Assembly: GCA_027069645.1 (NCBI GenBank)
Contig: JALXEI010000341.1
Span: forward strand, 1 to 35,064
Length of the DNA: 35,064 nucleotides
Reading direction: 5' to 3'
Origin: Hyphomicrobiales bacterium
GTDB taxonomy: Bacteria > Pseudomonadota > Alphaproteobacteria > Rhizobiales > JAKIUO01
The notes under the pieces are model-generated. The model was not told where the DNA came from, did not search any database, and saw only the letters and a program-made list of their open reading frames with translations. The translations under genes and the position numbers were made by a program. Within the stretch, counting starts at the first letter, position 1. Every line of letters starts with the position of its first letter. Shown here piece by piece: positions 1,667 through 34,779 of the stretch.

Positions 1667-4081
1667 TTACCGGCCATTGCTCGCCGGATTTCGCAGTTTC
1701 GTGGCCTTTTTCAACAGTTCAACCGGCGCGACATACCAGTCGCCCGAGCCGGGAATGCGCCCTGGCACGAAGAAATAGAATTGACGCCCGCTCGCTCCGG
1801 TTCGGCTTCCGCCTGCTTCCTTGCGGCGCGTTTGCAACCCGGCTGTCCGGCCAACGCTGGCAGTTACGCCACGATTCCGGCCGACGGAACGGTTTGTGCC
1901 TGTGTTCGGGGCCGCCTTCAACTTCTCGCCGCCGGGGCGAACCGTGGTATAGACCCAGCGGTTCTGTTCACGTACCCAGACCATCTGTCGCCTGCCACGA
2001 CCCTTGCTTTCCGCATGACTGCCAATTGCAGAACGGGCGGGGGCGGGACCTTCGGCAAGCCCCGATTTTTCCCTGACCGTTGGCCCCGCTCCAGGGCCGC
2101 TTTTTTGCCTGTCCTGTTTCTTTCCTGCCCCGGATTTCCCCGCTACAGATGTCGCAGCCGTTTTCTTGCGGGCAACGGTGACGCCTGCGGTTGCCGATAC
2201 GCCTGACGTGGCCGCGTCGCCAGCCGGTTGCCGGTCTGTCCTTTTTGTCGTCTTTGCTGCCTTTACTGCCTTTGTACCGGTATCCGTGGCCTTTGCCATT
2301 TGCCGCGTTTTGCGGGCGGGTGATTTTTTCGGTGTCACATAAACCCAGCGCCCGTTACACTGCACCCAGCCACCGGTAGCCGGCGCCTTGCCGGCCTGAC
2401 GGACGCGCGTCCCCGCGCCTGACGTTCCGGCCCTGTCTTTCGCCGCCGCGCGCGGAACATAGACCCAGCGACCATTGATTTTCGACCAGGCGCCGTTTTT
2501 CACTGTTTTCACCTTGCCGACCGCACGGGATTTCGGATGCACCGTATTGCCAGCCGGACGTTGCACCGACCCTTTTGCCGCACGGGCCGCAGCCTTTTTC
2601 CGGTCTGGCGTTTTTCCGACCGGTTTCATGACCTTTCGCACACGCGCATCCGGCGTCGTTTTTCCGGTCTTTGCGCCAGCTTTTGCGGTGACCTTTGCAT
2701 TTGTCCCCTGCCCCTGCTCCCTGACAACAGACTGTTTCTCCCCGTCAGTTTCTGTTGTGGATTTGGCCGCTGCGGCCTTTTTCTTTTTGATCTCTCCCGA
2801 AGCAGTCTTTTTCTTTTGGACCTTGCGGTCGGTCATGCCCTTGAGGGTGGAACTGTAGGTCCTCGATTTATCAAAAACATAGACCCAGTTGCGACCGCGA
2901 CCGACCCAGCCATCAGCATTTTCGGAATTGCGTATCATATCGCCAAGCCCGTAAATTCCGGGGGCAACGCCGCGCCTGTATGGCGCATAAACCCAGCGGC
3001 CGTCCGTGCGCCCGGTTTCCCCTCGCGCCGTCATTTGTGCTGCCGTTAAACCGGTTTGACCAAATGCCCTGGCAAGAGGTGAGTCCCTGTCGGGAACCCA
3101 GAAATAGGTCCCCTTGTGATCGGAAGCCGTTTGTTTCCGGTTTTTTTTCACGCGTTCCGTACCAACAGCCGCCGCCACCCGACCGCTGACCGTCTTTTTC
3201 TTCACGGTTTCCCTGCGCGCCTTCTTCACGGCAATCGCACCGGTCCTGTCCACATGTTGCTTCCCTGAAAGCGCGGGCTTCCCGGAAACAACAGCCTGCT
3301 TCTTCATCACAGGCTGTTTGGCAACCGGTTTGTGCAAGGGGAGCGATTTCGACCGGATCGAGGGTTTTTGTTCAACCGTTTTTTTGCTCTCTGCGGATTT
3401 TCCGGGCTTCAAACCTGTCGCGCCGGACCGGACATGGCCTGCGGCCACTCTGTTTTTCGAATGCTTTTCATTCCCGTCTTTCTTCGGCAACCTCAATCGC
3501 TCTTTTTCTTGCGCTGCGTTAATCCTGCCCACAGCAACAGGGCTGTCCGGTTGTCTTGCCGCGGGGGCTGTAACAATCCGCTTTCCTTGCGCGGCCTCGT
3601 CAGCAGATTTCTCGCTTTTGGCCATCCCTTCCGCCCGATGATTCTTCGATTTGACCGGAGCCGGTGTTGAAGTAACAACTTTGGTGGCTGGCTTTACGCC
3701 CTTTACCGCTGGCATTTTTTTTGCCGCTTGCGAAGCCCTGGCATCGCTCCCGGGTTTTGTCACAACGGGTGCCACCGGTGCGGCCTTCACCTGTTTTTCA
3801 TGCGAAGCGGAACCGTCCTTCGTCTCTCGGGCTGCTTTTTTGCCCTCCGGATGCGGTACGGCCTGCGGCGCAGTTGTGGTCTTTTTTTCGGTTTCACCGA
3901 AGGGGGACCAGAAATATTTGCCAAGGCCGGACAATCCCTTGCGGATATTTTCAATAAATTGCCCCGGATTGCCATGATCATTTTCTGCCGCCTGCGCCAC
4001 AGGGGCCGCCAGAGACAGAAAGAACAGGGTAAACAGAAGAATTCCTCGCCCGCGGGCTTTTGAACTGGCAAACATTTTCAT
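1667..4081 (-). CDS. exported, extremely basic K/A/T/P/G-rich low-complexity protein with dispersed aromatic G-x-W-V-Y-V motifs (function unknown)
   Basis: Uninterrupted 2.4-kb ORF with an N-terminal signal peptide (MKMFASSKARGRGILLFTLFFLSLAAPVAQA/AE). Recurrent motifs are GTYFWVP, GRWVYAP, GWVGRGRNWVYVF, AWSKINGRWVYVP, GWVQCNGRWVYVTP, VWVREQNRWVYTT, QFYFFVP and DWYVAP. On the + strand these appear as cata[ag]acccag strings near 1948, 2338, 2458, 2878 and 2985. Confidence 0.75.
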   Translation of the reverse strand: MKMFASSKARGRGILLFTLFFLSLAAPVAQAAENDHGNPGQFIENIRKGLSGLGKYFWSPFGETEKKTTTAPQAVPHPEGKKAARETKDGSASHEKQVKAAPVAPVVTKPGSDARASQAAKKMPAVKGVKPATKVVTSTPAPVKSKNHRAEGMAKSEKSADEAAQGKRIVTAPAARQPDSPVAVGRINAAQEKERLRLPKKDGNEKHSKNRVAAGHVRSGATGLKPGKSAESKKTVEQKPSIRSKSLPLHKPVAKQPVMKKQAVVSGKPALSGKQHVDRTGAIAVKKARRETVKKKTVSGRVAAAVGTERVKKNRKQTASDHKGTYFWVPDRDSPLARAFGQTGLTAAQMTARGETGRTDGRWVYAPYRRGVAPGIYGLGDMIRNSENADGWVGRGRNWVYVFDKSRTYSSTLKGMTDRKVQKKKTASGEIKKKKAAAAKSTTETDGEKQSVVREQGQGTNAKVTAKAGAKTGKTTPDARVRKVMKPVGKTPDRKKAAARAAKGSVQRPAGNTVHPKSRAVGKVKTVKNGAWSKINGRWVYVPRAAAKDRAGTSGAGTRVRQAGKAPATGGWVQCNGRWVYVTPKKSPARKTRQMAKATDTGTKAVKAAKTTKRTDRQPAGDAATSGVSATAGVTVARKKTAATSVAGKSGAGKKQDRQKSGPGAGPTVREKSGLAEGPAPARSAIGSHAESKGRGRRQMVWVREQNRWVYTTVRPGGEKLKAAPNTGTNRSVGRNRGVTASVGRTAGLQTRRKEAGGSRTGASGRQFYFFVPGRIPGSGDWYVAPVELLKKATKLRNPASNGR

Positions 4082-6945: not shown

Positions 6946-7173
6946 CTAACAGACCGAGGGGCGCTCGTAACCTTCATGTTGCAGGCGCGTTACCACCCGC
7001 ACCCAGGCCTCGGCCCGCACTTCATCCCCCAGCAGGGCCTGTTCATGAGCAAAAAAATCGGCAATCATGGCTGCATATGAGCCATGCTGCTGCTTGATCA
7101 CTTCAGCCATTCTCACAATGTCGGGTTCTGAAAAAAAAGGTGTTTTTGACGGTAGCGGCTTTGCACGGGCCAT
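6946..7173 (-). CDS. small hypothetical protein (about 75 aa)
   Basis: The ORF is open from 7206. ATG 7173 is preferred because gggag lies 7 nt upstream. I recognise no family. It sits upstream of gapR on the same strand. Confidence 0.45.
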   Translation of the reverse strand: MARAKPLPSKTPFFSEPDIVRMAEVIKQQHGSYAAMIADFFAHEQALLGDEVRAEAWVRVVTRLQHEGYERPSVC

Positions 7174-7308
7174 TTTGATACTCCCTGATCCGGTTGCCAT
7201 ATGCAAAGCAAGAACCGCACCAGGGAGAAAGTCAGCGTATATCCAAAGTTATGTCATACCAAACCACACAAAGTCTGATCTTTGTAATTTTGCCCGGTTT
7301 CTGTTCCC

Positions 7309-7572
7309 CTATTCGGAAGGGTCGGCCATGCCAAGCGCGTGCATATAGGTGGCGAGAACCGCTTCCTCTTCCATGCGCTCGTGGTCGTCTTTCTTGCGCA
7401 GGCGTATGATGGTGCGCAGCGCCTTGACATCAAAACCGTTGCCCTTGGCCTCGGCATAGATTTCCCTGATATCGGCGCTCAGATTGGCTTTTTCCTCTTC
7501 CAGATTTTCGATGCGTTCGATAATCGAGCGCAACTGGTCGGCTGTAGTGCCACCGGCAACAGATTCATTCAT
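7309..7572 (-). CDS. gapR: DUF2312/UPF0335 family nucleoid-associated protein (GapR-like)
   Basis: 87-aa ORF containing [48 protein letters not shown], which is characteristic of the alphaproteobacterial DUF2312/GapR family. RBS ggagaggag. Confidence 0.85.
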
Positions 7573-15178: not shown

Positions 15179-17017
15179 TCAGTAAACCCGCTTTTTGGGT
15201 TTGATATATTCCACCTCGTTTGTCATCGTATAGGCGTGCACCGGACGATCACCGGCTTTCACCTCGCGCTTTTGCGCGTCGATCCAGTGCAGGGAATGTT
15301 TCATCCAGTTTTCATCGTCCCGTTCGGGATAATCCTCGCGGGCATGGGCACCGCGACTTTCCAGACGCCCGGCGGCGCCGGTCATGGTGGTGACGGCCTG
15401 AAGGATGAGATTTTCATATTCAAGGCTTTCAATGAGATCCGTGTTCCAGATCAGCGAACGGTCCGTGACCTTTATATCCTCGCCCTGCTCCCAGACCTTG
15501 CGCAGCAGTGCCTGTCCTTCTTCCAGCACCTCGCCTGTACGGAACACGGCGCAATTGTTCTGCATGACCTTTTGCATATCAAGACGCAACTTCGCTGTAG
15601 GCGTGCCGCCATCGGCATGACGCAAACGGTCCAGTCGCTCCAGCGCCAGTGCCCCGGCATTGCGGGGCAAATCGGCATGTTTGCCATGTGGTTCAAGCTG
15701 GGCGATGCAGCGCTCGGCCGTGGCCCGGCCAAACACCACAAGGTCAATCAGCGAGTTGGAGCCCAGCCGATTGGCCCCGTGCACGGAAACACAGGCGGCT
15801 TCGCCCACCGCCATCAAACCGGGACAAATGGCATCCGGGTCACCGTTTTTGGCCGAAATGACCTCGCCGTGGAAATTGGTCGGAATCCCGCCCATATTGT
15901 AATGCGCCGTGGGGATCACCGGAATGGGATCGCGCGTCACGTCTACACCGGCAAAAATGCGTGAACTCTCGGAAATACCGGGTAGCCGCTCATGGATAAT
16001 GGCCGGGTCGAGATGATCGAGATGCAAAAAGATATGATCTTTTTCCGGACCGACGCCGCGCCCTTCACGGATTTCAATGGTCATCGCCCGGCTGACCACA
16101 TCGCGCGAGGCCAGATCCTTTGCAGTTGGCGCGTAGCGCTCCATGAAACGCTCGCCCTCGCTATTGGTGAGATAGCCGCCCTCGCCGCGCACCCCTTCGG
16201 TGATCAGCATCCCCGCGCCATAAATGCCGGTGGGATGAAACTGCACAAATTCCATATCCTGCAAGGGCAGCCCGGCCCTGAGCACCATTGCATTACCATC
16301 GCCGGTGCAGGTATGGGCCGAGGTGCAGGAGAAATAGGTACGGCCATAGCCGCCGGTGGCCAGAATGGTGCGATGGGCGCGGAAGCGATGCAGGGAGCCG
16401 TCCTCAAGGCAAAGGGCGATAACGCCGCGACAGGCGCCCTCGTCATCCATGATCAGGTCAATGGCAAAATATTCGATAAAGAATTCGGCCTGATGGCGCA
16501 GCGACTGACCATAAAGCGTGTGCAAAATGGCGTGTCCCGTACGGTCGGCGGCGGCGCAGGTGCGCATGGCGGGCGGCCCCTCGCCAAATTCGGTGGTCAT
16601 GCCGCCAAACGGGCGCTGATAGATCTTGCCCTCGTCATTGCGCGAAAACGGTACGCCATAATGTTCCAGTTCGTAAACCGCGGCAGGCGCCTCGCGGCAC
16701 AGATATTCGATTGAGTCCTGATCTCCCAGCCAGTCGGAGCCCTTGACCGTATCATACATGTGCCAGCGCCAGTCATCCGGCCCCATATTGCCAAGCGACG
16801 CCGCCACGCCGCCCTGGGCCGCAACGGTATGGGAGCGCGTCGGAAAAACCTTGGTAATGCAGCCCGTGCGCAACCCCGCTTCCGAAGCGCCAAGCGTTGC
16901 CCGCAAACCGGCTCCGCCCGCGCCCACCACCAGCACGTCAAAATCGTGATCCACAAAATCATAAACGCCGGGTCTGGCATAAGCCGCGTTCACGCCATTA
17001 TTGTTATTGTCTGCCAT
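15179..17017 (-). CDS. sdhA: succinate dehydrogenase flavoprotein subunit
   Basis: FAD-binding [14 protein letters not shown], the SHTVAAQGG histidyl-FAD site, and conserved HPTG and RLGSNSL segments along the full length. The start is ATG 17017 (GTG 17020 is also in frame). Confidence 0.95.
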
Positions 17018-17061
17018 CACATCCGCCTTTTATTTTATGCTGCCATACGCGCCGCTCACAG

Positions 17062-17230
17062 CTCACACTGCCAACTCTCTGCAATATGGATCCCCGCCTG
17101 CGCGGGGATGACACAGGGGGGACCCCCTGAAAAACAGACAATCCTCGCACTTCACTGTCCTTCACGCTCCCACTGTCACCCTTGCGCTCCCATTGTCATC
17201 CCCGCGAAGGCGGGGATCCATATTCCAGAG
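17062..17230. repeat. palindromic mini-element copy A (27-bp TIRs at 17087-17113 and 17194-17220)
   Basis: tggatccccgcctgcgcggggatgaca and tgtcatccccgcgaaggcggggatcca are reverse complements at 26 of 27 positions. Each TIR holds a ccccgc-N4-gcgggg hairpin. The left 89 bp differ from copy B at 5 positions. Confidence 0.85.
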
Positions 17231-17259
17231 AACTCGTAATTGTAAAACAAACTTCCCAC

Positions 17260-17559
17260 CTACAAATCCCAATCACAGGACAAATCCGACCAATCCGGGT
17301 TATCCTCCTCGATCAATTTTATCTTCCAGTCGCGATTCCATTTTTTCAATCTTTTCTCGCGCAGGATTGCCTCACCGATTTCCTGATGCACTTCATACCA
17401 CACCAGCCTGTGAACCCCGTATTTCGCCGTAAAGCCTTCAATGACGCCTTCCTTGTGTTCCCACACCCGTCGCAATAAATTGCTGGTCACACCAATATAA
17501 ATCGTCCCGTGTTTTGAGCTGGCGAGCATATAGACATAATACTGTTTTTCACCGTTCAT
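17260..17559 (-). CDS. small stand-alone GIY-YIG nuclease family protein (UPF0213/YhbQ-like)
   Basis: YYVYMLASSKHGTIYIGVTSNLLRRVWEHK...REKRLKKWNRDWKIKLIEEDNPDW shows the GIY...YIG, Arg and Glu signature of the about 100-aa GIY-YIG family. The start is ATG 17559 (GTG 17562 is in frame). Confidence 0.85.
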   Translation of the reverse strand: MNGEKQYYVYMLASSKHGTIYIGVTSNLLRRVWEHKEGVIEGFTAKYGVHRLVWYEVHQEIGEAILREKRLKKWNRDWKIKLIEEDNPDWSDLSCDWDL

Positions 17560-17560
17560 C

Positions 17561-17728
17561 ACTCACACCGCCAACTCTCTGCAATATGGATCCCCGCCTG
17601 CGCGGGGATGACACAGGAGGGACCTCCTGAACAACAGACAATCCTCACACCTCCACAGTCATCCCGCACTTCACTACCCTTCACGCTCCCACTGTCATTC
17701 CCGCGCAGGCGGGGATCCATACGCAGAG
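17561..17728. repeat. palindromic mini-element copy B (27-bp TIRs at 17587-17613 and 17693-17719)
   Basis: It has the same orientation and architecture as copy A, and its TIRs match at 26 of 27 positions. It begins 1-2 nt upstream of the GIY-YIG start codon. Confidence 0.85.
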
Positions 17729-17774
17729 TCCTCTCGTACGCATCCTCACTGCCACAGCACATGGAAAAGCTGGT

Positions 17775-18077
17775 TCATTCCTCGACCTTACAACCGGTTA
17801 GGGCGCAAACAGTATGCACAAATGCGAATAAAACCTGTTCATCCGAAAGATCACAATAAATAGGAAAGTCAGTCGAATTTCCTGCGGGATTACCTTCTTC
17901 ATTACACCGAACAACATTCAGATACCGTACAGTCCCTGCCCAATCTTTTTCCTTGGGTCTATGCTGAACCCACGCTCTTTTTTCCCATCCATCTGGAGGT
18001 TGCGTCCACTGAATGTAATAACTGCCATTTGAATCTCTCTGAATTTCCAAGTCCACTCTCCTTATCTCTCCCCTCAA
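17775..18077 (-). CDS. hypothetical small protein (91-100 aa), AT-rich, no ATG start
   Basis: The ORF has no Met codon at all. Candidate starts are TTG 18077 (overlapping the upstream stop), GTG 18056 or TTG 18050. A strong SD (taaggaga) lies 7 nt before TTG 18050. It is visibly AT-richer than its neighbours. I recognise no family. Confidence 0.45.
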   Translation of the reverse strand: MRGEIRRVDLEIQRDSNGSYYIQWTQPPDGWEKRAWVQHRPKEKDWAGTVRYLNVVRCNEEGNPAGNSTDFPIYCDLSDEQVLFAFVHTVCALTGCKVEE

Positions 18078-18736
18078 TGCCGCGCTGTCCCCTGCAAATC
18101 CTTGTATGGGGCAAACGCTTCCATCCCCCGCCAGTCGGGCAGGGCCTGATCGAGGAAGTCGATCATTTGCGTCTGTTTTTCGGGGTTGGGCTTTTCCGTC
18201 GTTTCCTGCAACACTTCGAGATAATATTCCTCATCCGTTTGAAGCGCCCTGATGAAATCATCGAAATGCAGCGCCAGCGTCACCCAGGCGTTGGCTTCGG
18301 GCTGGTCTTCAAGGTCGGGGATGCCGTGGATGAAGGCGACAACACGATCCTCGCCGGTCTGCTCGAAATCGGTAAGGTCAAGATAAAGCTCGCAGCCCGA
18401 ATTATCCCGCGCGATGGGCAGTACCTGCGGCGGCAGTTGTGCGGCTTCGCGCGACAGTTTCAACTCGTGCTCAAATGTTCCGAAAGGCGAGCTTTCCAGC
18501 CGTCGCTTTGTACCGTAAAGCAGGGAAAAACTGCGCGGCACTTTCATGTCGGGGTGATCGACCTCGATATAATAACCATCCAGATTGCCGCCATTGGCAA
18601 CCTGCAAAAACTGTTTGTAGGCGTCGGGCAATTTTGTTTGCAGCTCTTTTTCCAGCGCCTCGATTTCCCCTTCGGCGGGCGCACCAAGAAAATCCCTGAT
18701 GATGATATTGCCAAATTTTGTATAGGTCGCACCCAT
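18074..18736 (-). CDS. SMI1/KNR4 (SUKH-1) family protein, immunity-protein-like
   Basis: Its N-terminal region IEALEKELQTKLPDAYKQFLQVANGG is the hallmark SMI1/KNR4 motif (LPxxYxxFLxxxNGG), and it is about 220 aa long. The ATG lies 2 nt after the sdhD TGA, with GGAGG inside the sdhD 3' end. Confidence 0.75.
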   Translation of the reverse strand: MGATYTKFGNIIIRDFLGAPAEGEIEALEKELQTKLPDAYKQFLQVANGGNLDGYYIEVDHPDMKVPRSFSLLYGTKRRLESSPFGTFEHELKLSREAAQLPPQVLPIARDNSGCELYLDLTDFEQTGEDRVVAFIHGIPDLEDQPEANAWVTLALHFDDFIRALQTDEEYYLEVLQETTEKPNPEKQTQMIDFLDQALPDWRGMEAFAPYKDLQGTARH

Positions 18737-18738
18737 AA

Positions 18739-19119
18739 TCAGCCTCCAAAGCTCAGTTTCAGAACCGCAAACAGGCAGGCGAAGCCGATAAAGATCGAGA
18801 AAAACACATTGCCCATCAGAAAGAGAATCTTCAGCCCCTCATGCTGCACATAGTCTTCAACAATCACCTTGAAGCCGAGATACATGTGAAAGACCACCGA
18901 CAGAATAAACAGCATCAGCCCGATTGAGACAAAGGGCGAGCCGAGATAGGCGCGTACGGCGCTGTAATCGTCACCAATATGAAATACGATGGAAAACAGC
19001 AGAAACAGGGTCAGAAATATATTGGCCACCGCCGTCAGGCGCTGCCACCAGAAATGACTGGTCCCCGAACGAGCCGGCCCCAGGCCCCTTACCCGTCCCA
19101 GCGGTGTTTGCATGCTCAT
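18739..19119 (-). CDS. sdhD: succinate dehydrogenase hydrophobic membrane anchor subunit
   Basis: 126 aa with GTSHFWWQRLTAVAN...HMYLGFKVIVEDYV and three TM segments. RBS aaggag. It lies 12 nt downstream of sdhC. Confidence 0.9.
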   Translation of the reverse strand: MSMQTPLGRVRGLGPARSGTSHFWWQRLTAVANIFLTLFLLFSIVFHIGDDYSAVRAYLGSPFVSIGLMLFILSVVFHMYLGFKVIVEDYVQHEGLKILFLMGNVFFSIFIGFACLFAVLKLSFGG

Positions 19120-19131
19120 TTTGGCGCTCCT

Positions 19132-19539
19132 TTATAGATGTCCGCGCGCCCAGTAGGCGAGGAACCAGACGAGAATGGTCAGCAACACCGAACCGATCAG
19201 CGTCCCCCATGCCAGTATGTCCAGGGTCTTTTTCTCAAACCCGGCGCCGGTATCCCACAAAAGATGACGCATGCCGCCCAGCATGTGATGAATCAGCGCC
19301 CAGCTGTAGCCCAGCAGAATGAAGCGTCCGATATTTGAGCCGAAAAAACCGTTGACCTCGTTGAAATAGCGCTCGCTCGACGCCGCAGCGATCAGCCACC
19401 AGGCGAGCAGAAATGTGCCGAAATAGAGCACCGCGCCGGATATGCGATGGGCAATCGACATCATCATGGTCATGGTAAAGCGATAGATTTGCAGGTGAGG
19501 CGAAAGCGGACGGTCTGCCGGATTGCGATATTTTGCCAT
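19132..19539 (-). CDS. sdhC: succinate dehydrogenase cytochrome b556 subunit
   Basis: 135 aa with RPLSPHLQIYRF...SIAHRISG...HHMLGGMRHLLWD, the heme-ligand context typical of SdhC. Confidence 0.9.
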   Translation of the reverse strand: MAKYRNPADRPLSPHLQIYRFTMTMMMSIAHRISGAVLYFGTFLLAWWLIAAASSERYFNEVNGFFGSNIGRFILLGYSWALIHHMLGGMRHLLWDTGAGFEKKTLDILAWGTLIGSVLLTILVWFLAYWARGHL

Positions 19540-22288: not shown

Positions 22289-22340
22289 CAGGCCGTAAAC
22301 TCGTAAACAGGATTGATCCTGTTTACAAGTTTACGGCCTG
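22289..22340. repeat. compact palindromic copy of the same repeat family (two 25-bp arms, 2-nt spacer)
   Basis: The arms are caggccgtaaactcgtaaacaggat and atcctgtttacaagtttacggcctg, with 1 mismatch. The element lies between the Wzy-like gene and the GT gene and contains the Wzy-like stop codon. Confidence 0.85.
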
Positions 22341-23681
22341 ACTTTTTTGGTGTTTTGGCAACAGCAGCAACTGCATGGCGACAACGATCACCAGGTCAGT
22401 CCCCTTGGCCGAGAGGCTGACCGAAGTACTGGAAACGATGAGAAAATAGGCAAGGGGCCAGATGGCAACGGGGGCCGAGGCCCGGACCACATCGCCCAGA
22501 AAGGCAAACAGACCGATGAAAAAAATCACCGATACAATCAGGCCATAGGATAAAACAAAGGCCACCCAGAAGCTTTCAATGCCGAAATTGAGCCCCTGGG
22601 CGCGCAGCAGCGAGGCCACATATTCGGGGTCCGGGCCGATCAGAATATCGAGCGCGGACAAATCGCGAAAGACTTCAAACATGATGATCCGGGCGCTGGC
22701 GCTGCCCTTGTCATTGACAAAACGCTCGACAAACTGATCAAACAGGCCGGCTTCAAAGCCGATCACCAGTGCCGATATGCCAAGCGGCACCAGCAGGCTG
22801 CCCAGCAGCCAGTTGCGCCTGTTGGCCCGGCGGCCATTCAGAACCGGGATCAGTCTGAAACTGAAAATGACCAGCAGGAAGGCCAGCAGCGTGACCAGTG
22901 CCATGCGCCCGCCAAAGGCATTCATGGCCAGCAGATTGATGCCGAAAAGGATCGGCTTCATGCCCCACGACAGACGGTCACAGCCCCCCAGAGCCAGGGT
23001 CACGAGATAGGAACCGGTAATCAGCGCATTGGTCAGCGGATGCCCCAGAAGTGCGGAGGAACGCCAGTCACCCTCGATGATAAAACCGCCGGCATCAATT
23101 GGGGTCAGACGAAAGCCGGTGAGAAACTCAAACAGCCCCAGCAGGGCATTGACCAGCATGACATAATGAATGAGGCGCGCCAGTTTGAAACGCCCCTGCT
23201 CGTCAATAGCCGTCAGCAAAACCAGCATCACGACCGGAAAGATGAAAGTATCGATAATCGGTGTGAACGGCTTGTGCTGAATAACGGTGATCTGAAACAA
23301 CAGCAGAGCCCAGGTCACCAGAAAGAACAGCGTGCCCTTGTGGCGGGTGAAAAGTATATCGATGAATTCCAGCGGCCGGGATCGCGAAAACCACAGCAAA
23401 AACAGCGTTGCAACGGCAAGAAAATGCGCCGGATGGATTTTTTCAAGCGCCGTACCGCCTTCAAGGTCATAGCGAATGCCAAACCGGGTCAGCAACATGC
23501 TGGAGATGCCCATCACCAGAAACAATGACAGGCCGACAAGAAACACCAGCAGCGGAGAGGACCGCCCGGTGCTTCCCGACAGGCCCCCGATCCGTTGCTG
23601 TGCTGAAATAGAGGTGAATTCTGCCGCCATGCCCTGTTTCCGTCCGGGATTCCGTTTTTCTGCTACAACTGTCCCATGCAC
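22323..23681 (-). CDS. O-antigen ligase/polymerase-like (Wzy-type) integral membrane protein
   Basis: About 10-12 hydrophobic segments, with a larger loop after the mid-protein region (SSALLGHPLTNALI...). It sits in a polysaccharide locus. The start is 23681 or 23630. Confidence 0.65.
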   Translation of the reverse strand: MHGTVVAEKRNPGRKQGMAAEFTSISAQQRIGGLSGSTGRSSPLLVFLVGLSLFLVMGISSMLLTRFGIRYDLEGGTALEKIHPAHFLAVATLFLLWFSRSRPLEFIDILFTRHKGTLFFLVTWALLLFQITVIQHKPFTPIIDTFIFPVVMLVLLTAIDEQGRFKLARLIHYVMLVNALLGLFEFLTGFRLTPIDAGGFIIEGDWRSSALLGHPLTNALITGSYLVTLALGGCDRLSWGMKPILFGINLLAMNAFGGRMALVTLLAFLLVIFSFRLIPVLNGRRANRRNWLLGSLLVPLGISALVIGFEAGLFDQFVERFVNDKGSASARIIMFEVFRDLSALDILIGPDPEYVASLLRAQGLNFGIESFWVAFVLSYGLIVSVIFFIGLFAFLGDVVRASAPVAIWPLAYFLIVSSTSVSLSAKGTDLVIVVAMQLLLLPKHQKSQAVNL

Positions 23682-23731
23682 AAACCGCGCCGAAAAGGAA
23701 ACAAAAAGCCGGAAAAGTTCCTGAAAAATAC

Positions 23732-28020: not shown

Positions 28021-28974
28021 GTGACCCGACCTGTTTTTGACAACTGGAAACCCGAACACGGAAAGCTTTGGGGAAAATCACCTGTCATCCAGAAGCACAA
28101 TCTGCACAAATCGCCCCTGTTTACCGATGAGGCCCTTGCCGATCTCATCGAAAACTATCCGCGTAAGGATTATTCTCTGGTCATCCCGGGTCGCAAGGAT
28201 CAGGGACAGCACCATCTCTGGCGCGAGGGCGATATTGGTGATGCCACCGGTGCCGATGTTCTGAAAGCCATCAAAAACGGCTTCCTGTGGATCAATCTGC
28301 GTAACCTGCCTCTCAACAGCGCGGCATTCAGGGAACTGGCCCAACAATTGTTCGACGAAATGGCTCAAAATGTTCCCGGCCTCAAAATCAATGATTACGA
28401 CATGACCCTGCTGGTCACCTCGCCCGGGGCCCAGACCTACTATCATTGCGATGTGCCCGGCCAGTCCCTGTGGCATATTCGCGGTCGCAAGAAAGCATGG
28501 CTCTATCCGCCCGTTGATCCGTTTATGCCGGATGAATTGCTCGAACGGGTAATCCTTCAGGAAACAGAGGAAGAAATTCCCTTTGAGCAATGGTTCGACG
28601 ACCATGCCGCCACAATTGACATGGAGCCGGGCATGATGGCCCACTGGCCGCAGTTTTCGCCTCACAGGGTGGAAAATTATGACAGTCTCAACGTCTCTGT
28701 CACAACGGAATACTGGACAAATGATATCGAGCGCAACTACAAGGTGCGCTATGCCAATGGCCTGTTGCGGCGTCGTTTCGGGATCACCCCCAAAAGCACA
28801 GCAACCACCGGCATGGCCTATTTCTCGAAAGCTGTTCTGCAATCCCTGTGGCGCCGCTCGGGACTGGCAAGGAGACATATCTGGAGCCGGAAAATCGAGT
28901 TCAAACTTGATCCGTCAAACCTCGACGAAATGATCGACATTACGCCGTTCACACTTCGCCCGGGGAACAGCTAG
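28021..28974 (+). CDS. cupin/JmjC-like putative Fe(II)/2-oxoglutarate oxygenase
   Basis: A GTG start is preceded by aggag at 7 nt. The candidate HxD...H facial triad is YYHCD...(about 70 aa)...SPHRVEN, embedded in beta-rich sequence (SLWHIRGRKKAWLYPP). The family call is by resemblance only. Confidence 0.6.
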   Translation: MTRPVFDNWKPEHGKLWGKSPVIQKHNLHKSPLFTDEALADLIENYPRKDYSLVIPGRKDQGQHHLWREGDIGDATGADVLKAIKNGFLWINLRNLPLNSAAFRELAQQLFDEMAQNVPGLKINDYDMTLLVTSPGAQTYYHCDVPGQSLWHIRGRKKAWLYPPVDPFMPDELLERVILQETEEEIPFEQWFDDHAATIDMEPGMMAHWPQFSPHRVENYDSLNVSVTTEYWTNDIERNYKVRYANGLLRRRFGITPKSTATTGMAYFSKAVLQSLWRRSGLARRHIWSRKIEFKLDPSNLDEMIDITPFTLRPGNS

Positions 28975-32103: not shown

Positions 32104-32178
<75 letters not shown>

Positions 32179-32284
32179 GAAAACTCGCCTTGAATCATAA
32201 AAAAGCCCCAAACCAGCGTAGTTACGCGGTTTTTTGTCTTTTTGTCTTAATGAAACTGTTACACTAACCTGTTACACTTTCGGG

Positions 32285-33790
32285 ATGAAAGACATGAAAT
32301 TCCCCTATCTGGTAAAGCGCACCGACTCCCGTAAATGGTATCTGCGAATACCTGTCCCCGATGATTTGCATCATGTGTTTGGCAGACATGACAAATGTAA
32401 GAGTCTGCGAACAGAGGACAGAAAAGAAGCCGAACGCCTCTATTTTTCTCATCCCTTCGTTGCCGAATGGAAGGAAAAGTTTGAAGATGCAAGATTAGGC
32501 CGTCCTACAGGTTCAACATATGACAAGCTGAAACGCGAACGCTTGAAGCGTTTTCGAGCGGCTAAAAAAGACATATTCGAGTATGCTGATGAACACAGCG
32601 CATGGATTGATCCAGATTTTGCTTATACACACCCCGACGTGCACAATGAAAAACAGATTGTCGGTGATACTGAAAACGCGATAGCCCGCAAGAAGATTGC
32701 ACAGCTTTACCAGGACAAGGCTGTCGGGGTTGTCGATGCCAGAGAGGCAGATAAGCAGATTGAGGCGTTGCAACATCTGATTGCTGGCACTGTGCCAAAG
32801 AATGAACCTGAAGTCTCTTCCCTGCCCTCTCTGTTGAAAGTGCTTCCATATTATTATGCAGAATTCAAGACAACAGTTTCAAAACCAACATACAGAAAGA
32901 AAAAGCCGCATGTTGACTTATTCATCAAATGGGTAAAGGACAAACCCATAGATCAATATAGCCTGAAAGATGGGAATGATTTTCTTGAACGCCTGAAAAA
33001 GAAGCAGGCGAGGGGGAAAGCAAAGGGGCAGACATTAAGCCCGAACGCTATCAATGCTTACATGATTTCGGTTACTCAATTGTTCGACTGGTTACAGAAA
33101 AGATACGGGGATGCTGTTGTAAACCCTGCAAAAACAATTCGCGTGCCAGAAAAGAAGCCGATAAACACAAAAAAACCGCGTACTTCATTCACTACAGATG
33201 AATTAAACAAGCTGTTCCAGGTAGTAAAACCAGATCACCCGTTGTTTTGGGCTGCGCTGATTCCTTTATATTCGAGTATGCGTGTACAGGCGACATGCCA
33301 ACTTCGCAAACGCGATATAAAAAAGCGCGACGGAATATATTACTTTGATGTGCATGACAGGGGGGAAAACAAGCTCAAAAATCCAGGTGCGACAAGGGAA
33401 ATACCAGTCCACAAACGGCTTATTGAATTGGGACTGTTGGAATATATGGCGTCGGTAGAGGATTATCTTTTCCCGTCTATAGCTGACGGTGCAAGAGAAT
33501 ATCCAAACGGACACGACAGATGGGCTGATAGATTGGGATTGGCTTTCGCCAAACTGTTGAAGCAGGCGAAAATAAAGAGAAAGGAAATAACTTTCACTTC
33601 CCTTCGTCATACACATGTGGACGCTTCCCGGGAAGCCGGAATGAGCTATTCAGCCGCGTGCTGGATTCAGGGAAGGAAGGAAAACAGCTCTATGGCCAAT
33701 TATGGAGAATGGCGCGACCTGAAACGGCGTAAATTTGAGTTGGACAAGATTGAATATGATTTTGTATTGTCTCCACACAACGGCAAATAA
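32285..33790 (+). CDS. tyrosine-type site-specific integrase
   Basis: N-terminal KWYLRIPVPDDL-type arm-binding region. The C-terminal catalytic region has SMRVQATCQLRKRDI (Arg I), FTSLRHTHV (H-x-x-R region) and SSMANYG (catalytic Tyr). The start is ATG 32285; the frame is open from 32234. Confidence 0.85.
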   Translation: MKDMKFPYLVKRTDSRKWYLRIPVPDDLHHVFGRHDKCKSLRTEDRKEAERLYFSHPFVAEWKEKFEDARLGRPTGSTYDKLKRERLKRFRAAKKDIFEYADEHSAWIDPDFAYTHPDVHNEKQIVGDTENAIARKKIAQLYQDKAVGVVDAREADKQIEALQHLIAGTVPKNEPEVSSLPSLLKVLPYYYAEFKTTVSKPTYRKKKPHVDLFIKWVKDKPIDQYSLKDGNDFLERLKKKQARGKAKGQTLSPNAINAYMISVTQLFDWLQKRYGDAVVNPAKTIRVPEKKPINTKKPRTSFTTDELNKLFQVVKPDHPLFWAALIPLYSSMRVQATCQLRKRDIKKRDGIYYFDVHDRGENKLKNPGATREIPVHKRLIELGLLEYMASVEDYLFPSIADGAREYPNGHDRWADRLGLAFAKLLKQAKIKRKEITFTSLRHTHVDASREAGMSYSAACWIQGRKENSSMANYGEWRDLKRRKFELDKIEYDFVLSPHNGK

Positions 33791-33819
33791 AGCCCACACA
33801 GCGCCAAAATTACAAAGTA

Positions 33820-34716
33820 CTACTCTGACACTTCGCCAAGTTCAAAAAGCCTCTCCTCAAGCTCTGTGGCCGTTATAATACCTAATTCATACATGCCCTT
33901 ATACATGTCTATGTCTGACATTCGTTTTTCAATGGCTTTTTTGCCTTGAGACAACCGGGTTTTGCGGTTTTTTTGCCTTCCCCTCTTCTGCGCCCATCTT
34001 TCAGATGAAAAATCCTTTTCAAGCGTGTATGCAACAACTGTAGCTGGAAGAACTCTGGGGAGGTAGAATCCTTCACGCACTGGCACTTGTGTATATTCAT
34101 CATCCTGGGACAGTTTTAATTTTCCATTTTTGTCCTTGAGACGGTAATTTATTCCCAATCTGTGAGCTGCCACGGTTATAAGGTTGCGGTTCATATGTTT
34201 CCGTTGTTGTGAACAGTGCATCATTCTGAAAATGGCTATGAGCTGCACAATTTCGCTCATCGGGTAGAAGCGGTATGCGTTTGTTTTTGTTGTGCCCACC
34301 GCTCTTTTGAAAAATGTTGTAATGATCTGAAAGTCGCTCTCTATCTCTTCATCGGTGCCTATAATTGGTAGAGATAATCCGTCTGCGATTTGTTTGATTT
34401 CGCTTGGGGGTATTTTATCTGCAAGTTCTTTGTCAGTCTGTAAGGGTATGAAGTGAAACAGACTGGAATCTTCGCAGTGTCCCGTAAATACAAAAATTTT
34501 ATCGGTGTCATAGTTGCGCTTTTTACGTTTGTCCCAGACGATATATTCATATGTTTTGTAAGGAACTTTCAGTTCCGGCTGTTTGCCTGTTTTATCTTTG
34601 ATCAGGTACAAGGCGTCCATTTTATCCTTGCAAGGCGTCAGTGTGTTTTTCTCGCTATCATACACGCTAAAGATTACATATCGAGCATTTGGTTTTGTTG
34701 TCTGTATTATCTCCAT
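33820..34716 (-). CDS. hypothetical island protein (about 298 aa), family unknown
   Basis: A long ORF in AT-rich DNA. ATG 34716 (MEIIQTTK...) is preceded by aggaa at 7 nt. The upstream in-frame ATG 34758 lies inside a hairpin. Confidence 0.6.
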   Translation of the reverse strand: MEIIQTTKPNARYVIFSVYDSEKNTLTPCKDKMDALYLIKDKTGKQPELKVPYKTYEYIVWDKRKKRNYDTDKIFVFTGHCEDSSLFHFIPLQTDKELADKIPPSEIKQIADGLSLPIIGTDEEIESDFQIITTFFKRAVGTTKTNAYRFYPMSEIVQLIAIFRMMHCSQQRKHMNRNLITVAAHRLGINYRLKDKNGKLKLSQDDEYTQVPVREGFYLPRVLPATVVAYTLEKDFSSERWAQKRGRQKNRKTRLSQGKKAIEKRMSDIDMYKGMYELGIITATELEERLFELGEVSE

Positions 34717-34744
34717 CCTATGTTCCTGTGTTGTTCTACTTGGC

Positions 34745-34779
34745 AAACCACGCTTCATGCGTGGTTTTTCATTTTTTGT
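34745..34779 (+). terminator. intrinsic-terminator-like hairpin (9-bp stem, 5-nt loop, T-rich tail)
   Basis: The sequence is aaaccacgc-ttcat-gcgtggttt followed by ttcatttttt. No convincing + strand gene reads into it, so it may instead be a 5'-leader structure of the minus-strand gene. Confidence 0.3.

Follow-up and report, generated by a model that had tools for sequence, protein, structure and literature searches.

SsnA, a 94-aa GIY-YIG nuclease of meningococci, binds the 28-nt hairpin NTS on single-stranded DNA (ssDNA) in one orientation and cleaves the strand just upstream of the hairpin (Chenal et al., Nat Commun 2025, PMC11893778). The same study described thousands of homologues (ssn; CDD cd10448) across phyla, and the four that were tested cleaved their own repeats sequence-specifically on ssDNA. 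Such repeats, the SRMs, stand on both sides of 42% of ssn genes, and the authors pointed out the insertion sequence (IS)-like NTS-ssnA-NTS layout and the parallel to REP/RAYT (PMC11893778). Proteins of the SUKH superfamily, in turn, are on record as conferring immunity to nuclease toxins (Zhang, Iyer and Aravind 2011, PMC3113570). Here, we analyzed a 35,064-nt stretch of DNA from a Hyphomicrobiales bacterium (contig JALXEI010000341.1; the whole stretch is called the window), in which a SUKH gene, a small AT-rich open reading frame (ORF), and an ssn-type GIY-YIG gene with hairpin repeats lie between sdhD and sdhA of the succinate dehydrogenase operon. We consider it likely that this sdhD-sdhA interval is a layered composite of three ages rather than a single insertion.

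An sdh operon with additional genes between sdhD and sdhA

The window shares sdhC, sdhD, and sdhA, in the usual order and orientation, with the canonical proteobacterial sdhCDAB operon. It differs from that operon in that sdhD and sdhA are 1.7 kb apart (1,721 nt from the sdhD stop to the sdhA ATG), sdhB is absent at the locus in the whole clade described below, and a PEBP gene follows sdhA. An earlier note on this DNA had listed three extra same-strand ORFs and two copies of a palindromic element between sdhD and sdhA, and Pfam searches and repeat analysis bore this out. Read along the minus strand, the genes and repeats follow each other as sdhC, sdhD, the SUKH gene, the small ORF, a hairpin doublet (A), the GIY-YIG gene, a second hairpin doublet (B), and sdhA.

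As a baseline, 80 reference alphaproteobacterial loci were taken from a contig search with SdhA (identity up to 78%); these were not used for dating. As the note had expected, sdhD normally stood directly before sdhA: it was found in 75 of the 80 loci, always ending directly before sdhA, and was not detected in the other five. The SUKH gene, the small ORF, and the GIY-YIG gene were found in none of the 80, indicating that the architecture is indeed atypical. However, the label of an sdhCDAB-type operon could not be kept, as tblastn with an SdhB sequence gave no match in the window or in any locus of the SUKH-bearing clade, whereas sdhB was adjacent in 68 of the 80 reference loci. Adjacent sdhB was also absent at some other Hyphomicrobiaceae reference loci (L008, L013, and L014).

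The SUKH gene is a fixed member of the operon in one clade

Close relatives of the locus were collected by protein searches with SdhD, SUKH, and GIY-YIG sequences and by exact-protein look-ups; L088 was the sole locus from a metagenome scan, with SUKH as the query. Together with the window they represent nine lineages, namely the window (with L082), L083, L084 (with L085), L086 (with L087), L088, L089, L090, L092, and L094. The SUKH protein of one clade member carries the NCBI label Hyphomicrobiaceae. The order sdhC-sdhD-SUKH was present in all nine lineages, with sdhD identity down to 79%, and sdhA came next wherever the contig extended that far. In the window, SUKH starts 2 nt past the sdhD stop, and its GGAGG ribosome-binding site lies within the last sdhD codons; the gap was 2-5 nt in seven of the nine lineages.

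The ratio of nonsynonymous to synonymous substitution rates (dN/dS) of SUKH was 0.06-0.19 against eight relatives, at dS of 0.55-3.3, which was similar to sdhC and indicated purifying selection. A tree of sdhD plus SUKH and a tree of sdhC, sdhD, and sdhA with SUKH excluded agreed on a subclade A (the window, L090, and L092, joined by L089 and L088 in the sdhD plus SUKH tree), a subclade B (L083, L084, and L094), and the outgroup L086. Identity among SUKH homologues fell sharply from 63% to 54%, and the homologues at 54% and 42% lay outside sdh operons, one behind a Tll0287-like gene and one beside a desaturase locus. The conserved position in nine of nine lineages, the congruent trees, and the homologues elsewhere that are not in sdh therefore argue that SUKH was recruited once at the base of the clade and kept. 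Thus, SUKH is a clade-fixed, ordinary lineage-specific operon member and not a recent accessory insertion. The earlier note had proposed to compare the sdhD-sdhA junction among relatives, on the view that an ancestral gene order would speak against an accessory insertion; for the largest piece of the interval, such an ancestral placement is what was found.

The protein matched the SUKH family profiles, with SMI1_KNR4 at 1e-16 (62 bits, compared to a cut-off of 25.4), SUKH_6 at 1.7e-13, and SUKH_5 also. Its AlphaFold model (pLDDT 92) showed the alpha+beta fold of SUKH proteins, with 2ICG, the SUKH domain of FBXO3, YobK, BF1740, and Knr4 as the best PDB matches. The Foldseek probability was 1.00 for the first four of these, although E ≤ 0.001 was reached by 2ICG alone. 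A conserved C-terminal helical extension of ~55 residues ended in a (F/W)LD..P.WR motif. The likeness to the SUKH superfamily (PMC3113570) thus lies in the family profiles and the predicted fold. In contrast to that superfamily, the window gene is fixed in an sdh operon, coupled to sdhD, extended at the C-terminus, and without an adjacent toxin gene; no toxin-domain gene was found in the flanks inspected at the nine loci, where the upstream neighbor was sdhD in every case. As the oldest layer, the SUKH gene would have entered the operon between sdhD and sdhA in the ancestor of a single uncultured clade and then have been inherited vertically as a translationally coupled operon member, with a predicted SUKH-fold binding module as its product.

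Alternatively, SUKH and the variable ORFs behind it may be orphan polymorphic-toxin immunity genes that sit in the sdh operon for constitutive expression and have no sdh function, an explanation to which we give somewhat less than an even chance. It agrees with the SUKH-1 fold, with a weak match to an Rhs immunity protein, with a weak PADLOC match (PDC-M40A, 1.6e-5), and with YobK, which we take to be the immunity protein of the YobL toxin, among the top structural matches. SUKH proteins are moreover known as nuclease-toxin immunity proteins (PMC3113570), the slot behind SUKH holds different small genes in each lineage, as in immunity-gene arrays, and a homologue of the 91-aa small ORF adjoins SIR2 and DUF262 genes on a conjugative plasmid. 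However, none of the nine loci has a toxin gene nearby, and the 91-aa ORF and a 183-aa ORF of two relatives match no known immunity family. In addition, the position and the coupling to sdhD were kept while synonymous sites became saturated (dS 0.55-3.3), whereas orphan immunity genes usually turn over faster.

A literature search returned nothing relevant that pairs succinate dehydrogenase with SUKH or SMI1, and a SUKH gene fixed in an sdh operon under purifying selection is the part of this locus that was absent from the searched literature. The strictly kept position, the coupling to sdhD, and the inheritance along with sdhC, sdhD, and sdhA would also suit a role in complex II. As a doubtful idea, SUKH might serve complex II as a lineage-specific factor, either accessory or for its assembly; it could, for example, be a chaperone of SdhA or an adaptor that docks SdhA in a lineage with unlinked sdhB. 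An interaction with complex II would make SUKH a new factor of bacterial succinate dehydrogenase and give the SUKH fold a new role in the cell; as an immunity gene, SUKH would instead show how a housekeeping operon can lock in such genes.

The GIY-YIG gene and the hairpins form an Ssn/SRM module

The GIY-YIG gene and the palindromes had been listed separately in the earlier note. Judged by their sequences, they are instead one Ssn/SRM module, a new example of the published system (PMC11893778). The Pfam GIY-YIG match of the gene covered residues 7-81, with no further significant domain. The window protein was 55% identical to the homologue of N. gonorrhoeae (BLASTP 4e-40, tblastn 5e-29; the threshold in PMC11893778 is E < 1e-10), the comparison being made to the gonococcal ORF, taken as the SsnA orthologue, and not to the meningococcal sequence. 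More than 6,500 ssn homologues were found at E ≤ 1e-10, and the family was ~65-75% identical across phyla. The dN/dS of ssn was 0.11.

Each doublet consists of an inverted pair of ~30-nt hairpin arms (29-43 nt) that are 70-80 nt apart and 91-97% complementary, and doublets A and B are 90% identical over 102 nt. The arm sequence occurred four times in the window and not once in 100 shuffles. From the degenerate motif of PMC11893778, we used the regular expression HGTCWYN(0-2)YYVSBRHN(0-5)WNVSBRGN(0-2)RNCYNB, and its matches were exactly these four arms, two on each side of ssn, with none elsewhere in the 35 kb (0.21 expected). Relative to the minus-strand genes, the SRM of doublet A at 17693-17720 is antisense and that at 17586-17613 is sense, and the sense arm with a CCATATTGCAGAGA extension lies directly upstream of ssn. 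In doublet B, the antisense SRM (17194-17221) lies directly downstream of ssn and the sense SRM at 17086-17113; this doublet ends ~55 nt ahead of the sdhA start codon.

Inverted hairpins also flank ssn homologues in Azospirillum, Sinorhizobium, Neisseria, Aeromonas, and Novosphingobium, and a weaker, unrelated inverted repeat was observed in Planktothrix. The repeats of Azospirillum, Neisseria, and Aeromonas nearly match those of the window, in the form CGTCAT(C/T)CCCGCG..GCGGG(G/A)ATCC, and the repeat at the Neisseria homologue is dRS3. The window and Neisseria modules thus share a single-domain GIY-YIG protein of ~95-100 aa, bracketing by inverted 28-nt hairpins, and an IS-like layout, and the window arms differ from the Neisseria NTS at few positions only. 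However, the host here is an uncultured alphaproteobacterium, and the module sits inside a respiratory operon, on the coding strand and between conserved genes. Its doublets run antisense-then-sense relative to the gene, whereas the order is the reverse in Neisseria and Azospirillum. As a homologue of SsnA, the window Ssn would bind the SRM hairpin on the ssDNA strand that carries TGTCATCCCCGCGCAGGCGGGGATCCATA, in one orientation, and cut just upstream of it. This module in the SUKH-sdhA spacer would be the second layer, an IS-like repeat-gene-repeat arrangement with no transposase.

The REPIN/RAYT system (PMC3116915) is similar in having two inverted hairpins with a spacer that form a long hairpin, a small nuclease gene flanked by doublets, apparently largely vertical inheritance, and a patchy repeat population. 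RAYT, however, is a domesticated IS200/IS605-type tyrosine transposase, whereas the window enzyme is a GIY-YIG protein and not a Y1 (HUH) transposase. Among the window ORFs of at least 150 aa that were submitted to Pfam, none matched a Y1 transposase domain. On our own reading of the sequence, the repeats also lack the GTAG/CGTC tag that is typical of REPs. A REPIN mobilized by a RAYT was considered and dropped, since the flanked gene is of the GIY-YIG type and the Ssn/SRM description (PMC11893778) fits. A novel IS was dropped as well; although 38-43-nt inverted repeats flank the gene, it encodes only a 99-aa GIY-YIG protein and no transposase domain. No target-site duplication was seen on reading the ends of the ssn unit, where no systematic search was made. 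A literature search on GIY-YIG with REP, COG2827, or YhbQ returned nothing relevant. At the Rfam gathering thresholds, tRNA alone was matched in the window; sub-threshold doublet matches to plant and animal miRNA precursors, seen at a permissive threshold, were rejected as generic long hairpins.

A further likeness is to the intergenic mosaic and minimal mobile elements of Neisseria, which are dRS3-flanked repeat arrays and variable cassettes between conserved genes, respectively. Here, too, dRS3-like hairpins bracket repeat units of 26-80 nt, and the cassettes vary by lineage (91-aa ORF, 183-aa ORF, or none). In contrast to these Neisserial elements, the flanking conserved genes belong to one operon.

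In annotated replicons (L095, L096, L099, L100, and L104-L108), eight of nine ssn homologues lay just downstream of a same-strand host gene, often in an operon. This arrangement is seen, for instance, in Azospirillum (sufB-ssn-sufC), S. meliloti (gltA-ssn), Planktothrix (MmeI-ssn-DrmA), and Spirosoma (GH43-ssn-GH127), whereas in Sphingobium (L107), the ninth case, fnrL lies upstream of ssn but on the other strand. The same-strand upstream gene in eight of nine loci suggests that ssn relies on host transcription. A further doubtful idea, independent of that on SUKH and complex II, is that Ssn/SRM modules might settle preferentially in spacers of strongly transcribed housekeeping operons, on the coding-strand side (sdh, sufB-sufC, and downstream of gltA), because transcription would expose the single-stranded hairpin target.

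The ssn module is probably old at this site

In the SUKH-sdhA spacer, ssn was present in the window and L092 of subclade A and in L094 of subclade B, which makes three of the eight lineages with a full spacer. It was absent from L089 and L090, the closest relatives of the window, and from L083 and L084. Ssn identities were 78% for window-L092, 76% for window-L094, and 69% for L092-L094, and SUKH identities for the same pairs were 81, 73, and 76%. In a neighbor-joining (NJ) tree of the 36 closest Ssn proteins, the window paired with L092, and L094 paired with P0171, a split that corresponds to the host subclades; P0171 is encoded on a 51-kb contig that also bears a subclade-B SUKH gene. The third-codon-position GC content (GC3) of ssn, 59%, is host-like. 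In L090, the SRM-like hairpin is followed by AGTGGGAGTGTG, which equals the first 12 nt of the window-type doublet spacer. These comparisons suggest that ssn was probably present in the common ancestor of both subclades and that several lineages lost it afterwards by deletion, with single relic hairpins left behind.

An unlikely alternative is that three lineages, namely the window, L092, and L094, each gained an SRM-ssn-SRM unit independently by its copying into a single resident hairpin, in a homing- or IS-like manner. Such repeated insertion is consistent with the patchy distribution, where the two closest relatives have one SRM-like hairpin only, and with the differing layouts, as L094 has a minimal SRM-ssn-SRM and the doublet spacers measure 26 nt in L092 but 80 nt in the window. 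The ~65-75% identity of the family across phyla also suggests horizontal spread, and L084 carries a gene-less SRM pair at a site where neither the window nor L083 has one. However, the Ssn tree sorts the sdh-locus copies by host subclade, Ssn divergence tracks SUKH divergence, and GC3 is that of the host. The 12-nt doublet-spacer remnant in L090 also fits deletion better than an empty target site. An ancestral ssn with later losses is therefore preferred to repeated insertion.

The gene-less pair of L084 (1119-1222; sense arm, 54 nt, antisense arm) lies after a Wzz gene in a ~500-nt spacer, and the matching spacer is 50 nt in the window (23682-23731) and 130 nt in L083. Presence and absence at this site indicate that SRM repeats are dynamic away from ssn.

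At the sdh locus, one orthologous spacer can be traced over nine lineages in full, minimal, relic, and empty states, and this record bears on whether Ssn modules are mobile, domesticated, or both. The spacer of L086, the most distant clade member, holds another repeat, indicating that unrelated repeat families colonized one spacer. In the sdhD-SUKH gap, L084 (6382-6504) and L094 (3829-4005) carry two and three tandem 59-nt palindromic units, respectively, of the form AGCACAATCYGAAAAGTGGGWACCGGTTTTT...AAATTGTGC. This unit is a second repeat family in the same operon, unrelated to SRM, and matched part of the model of the Brucella sRNA CI408 below the threshold.

The small AT-rich ORF is a recent arrival in a cassette slot

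The small ORF was AT-richer than its surroundings, as the earlier note had seen, with a GC3 of 33.7%, compared to 63.8% for SUKH, 59.0% for the GIY-YIG gene, and 56-70% for host genes, a range that leaves aside two low-GC ORFs at 32234-34758. The 91-aa ORF was not found in any of the recovered relatives. The low GC3 together with this absence indicates a recent import, so the small ORF is a recent foreign arrival.

Nevertheless, the 91-aa ORF has 107 representative homologues at E ≤ 1e-3 and 54 at E ≤ 1e-10, which align from residue 10-11 of the longer frame and share the motifs KRAWIQ, DWAGTGRYLNV, TDFPI, and LSDEQ.L.AFV. On this conservation, it belongs to a real, uncharacterized conserved family. 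Neither it nor the 183-aa ORF of L092 gave anything usable in Pfam, NCBIfam, PADLOC, and PHROGs. The model of the 91-aa protein (pLDDT 93.5) has five strands and a C-terminal helix, and a Foldseek search of the PDB returned no significant neighbor; a likeness to Sub1/PC4 (E 0.097), followed by other single-stranded nucleic-acid-binding folds, was too weak to use. Among annotated plasmids, the sole homologue was an unannotated ORF (L103:5001-5285) of the conjugative Sinorhizobium americanum plasmid B. It lies directly after DUF262 and SIR2-family genes, in a setting that resembles a defense island.

At the spot of the 91-aa ORF, L092 and L088 carry an unrelated 183-aa ORF, the two copies being 44% identical to each other. 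The differing ORFs at one spot indicate that the stretch from the SUKH stop to the first hairpin behaves as a cassette-turnover hotspot. We infer that the SRM repeats and the nuclease may drive this turnover. As the third and youngest layer, the foreign AT-rich 91-aa gene would have entered the stretch behind SUKH and ahead of the first hairpin, and only in this lineage.

Expression of sdhA probably relies on read-through

A consensus scan found a sigma-70-like promoter match upstream of sdhC (19622-19595, GTGACA-16-TATAGT). On the minus strand over 17021-18738, no sigma-70-like promoter was found by this E. coli-type consensus scan, which may miss an alphaproteobacterial promoter. The same strand showed no intrinsic terminator other than one terminator-like match in the SUKH coding sequence, which was no better than background. 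Since all genes lie on one strand and there is no internal promoter or terminator consensus, read-through from the sdhC promoter is, on the sequence, the most likely route of sdhA expression. In one relative, the 41-nt SUKH-sdhA spacer makes a separate sdhA promoter hardly possible.

Folded as RNA, doublet B reached -112.9 kcal/mol (z = -9.2). REP elements of E. coli stabilize, process, or attenuate transcripts. The hairpin doublets would probably act as REP-like mRNA structures and, by this analogy, doublet B could stabilize, process, or attenuate the transcript. The locus shows an essential respiratory operon that tolerates, immediately ahead of sdhA, ~1 kb of selfish and foreign DNA together with two hairpins that fold at about -113 kcal/mol.

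Weighing of the layered composite

The earlier note had proposed a compositional mosaic built in steps, and this view stands, with a native-like GC3 for SUKH and an AT-rich small ORF. The 1.7-kb accessory insertion that it had deduced holds in part. SUKH is ancestral and the ssn module is probably old at the site, and the recent, lineage-specific part is the ~0.3 kb of the 91-aa ORF. The identities of the genes, their conservation and selection, the motif matches, and the presence or absence of elements in the relatives were established directly, whereas nuclease activity, an ancestral ssn that was later lost, a part of the repeats in cassette turnover, and co-transcription are steps that we infer. 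Several points weigh against the layered composite as a whole. The ancestral ssn with at least three losses is a parsimony argument on a 99-aa NJ tree without support values, the placement of P0171 at an sdh locus is putative, and repeated targeted insertion into a pre-existing SRM would yield a similar pattern. The link of SUKH to succinate dehydrogenase consists solely of position and coupling. The four SRMs in 35 kb give no sign, at window scale, of the massive expansion of pathogenic Neisseria, and the promoter scan has the limit given above.

Misassembly of the sdhD-sdhA interval is unlikely. The ENA scaffold L082 (SAMN10217877) equals the window from 21500 to 16753, the entire insert into sdhA included, with 1 mismatch in 4,748 nt (99.98%), and the Logan contig L081 (SRR14510437) equals 19300-17588 at 100%, running from sdhC and ending inside doublet A. 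In two other species, L092 (a GenBank metagenome-assembled genome) and L094, ssn is placed in the same spacer. An artefact in which the near-identical doublets (90% over 102 nt) let an assembler splice an ssn copy from a different locus into the sdh operon can therefore be set aside as most improbable, for although the break of L081 within doublet A shows that assemblers do have trouble there, the ~10% of positions that differ are enough for telling the doublets apart, the independent ENA scaffold bridges the whole insert, and L092 and L094 carry ssn in that spacer too.

Feature coordinates and other parts of the window

The features of the operon and the SUKH-sdhA spacers of the relatives are listed in Table 1. 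The most likely start of the 91-aa ORF is the TTG at 18050, 7 nt past AAGGAG, from where the homologues align. For the GIY-YIG gene, the ATG at 17559 is the most likely start, with the 99-aa product on record in one public assembly. The most likely start of sdhA, judged by comparison of the start region with relatives, is the ATG at 17017, with AAGGCGGA just before it.

Table 1. Features of the sdh locus in the window, and SUKH-sdhA spacers in the window and its relatives
Feature	Position or length	Strand	Description
sdhC	19132-19539	minus	cytochrome b556 subunit; Pfam Sdh_cyt 3e-31
sdhD	18739-19119	minus	membrane anchor subunit; Pfam Sdh_cyt 1e-17
SUKH-1 / SMI1-KNR4 gene, 220 aa	18074-18736	minus	Pfam SMI1_KNR4 1e-16
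Small AT-rich ORF	17775-18077 as open frame; 17775-18050 as 91 aa	minus	no Pfam match
SRM hairpin doublet A	~17576-17731		inverted repeat I4, 97% complementary
ssn, single-domain GIY-YIG, 99 aa	frame 17260-17562; gene 17260-17559	minus	Pfam GIY-YIG 3e-15
SRM hairpin doublet B	~17076-17231		inverted repeat I1, 43-nt arms, 91% complementary
sdhA	15179-17020	minus	flavoprotein; FAD_binding_2 8e-125, Succ_DH_flav_C 1.5e-43
SUKH-sdhA spacer, L083	41 nt		nothing recognizable
SUKH-sdhA spacer, L084	80 nt		two half-sites GGGGATGAC
SUKH-sdhA spacer, L090	124 nt		one SRM-like hairpin, no match to the published SRM regex
SUKH-sdhA spacer, L089	137 nt		one SRM-like hairpin, no match to the published SRM regex
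SUKH-sdhA spacer, L086	472 nt (7075-7546)		other palindromic repeat family, CCCTCTCCCCATGGGAGAGGG, perfect inverted copies
SUKH-sdhA spacer, L094	494 nt		hairpin, GIY-YIG gene, hairpin
SUKH-sdhA spacer, window	1,053 nt		91-aa ORF, doublet, GIY-YIG gene, doublet
SUKH-sdhA spacer, L092	1,402 nt		183-aa ORF, doublet, GIY-YIG gene, doublet
SUKH-sdhA spacer, L088	at least 396 nt, contig ends		homologue of the 183-aa ORF

In the window, the gap between sdhC and sdhD is 12 nt. The sdhC-sdhD spacer was 187-230 nt in L083 (5814-6000), L084 (5808-6000), L094 (3218-3447), and L089 (2909-3114), and these four share a ~100-nt GC-rich block, compared to spacers of 12-40 nt in the window, L092, and L090. The block may be an inserted element or a structured RNA. 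Downstream of sdhA, the window has the PEBP gene and then a convergent acyltransferase gene; the gene 3' of sdhA varied by lineage (PEBP, CcdA/CcdB, KAP NTPase, LRR protein, and DUF7931).

Elsewhere in the window, a tRNA-Gly(GCC) at 32104-32178 is followed by a 518-aa ORF (32234-33790; N-terminal DUF6538, GC 44%) and a 312-aa ORF with no Pfam match (33820-34758; GC 42%, compared to a window mean of 54%). The stretch 32104-34758 looks like an island integrated at the tRNA gene. Three further ORFs had no Pfam match at 1e-5, namely those at 1667-4081 (804 aa), 22323-23681 (452 aa), and 28021-28974 (317 aa). The latter two lie within a cluster for polysaccharide synthesis that also encodes Wzz, a sugar transferase, glycosyltransferases, and a flippase.

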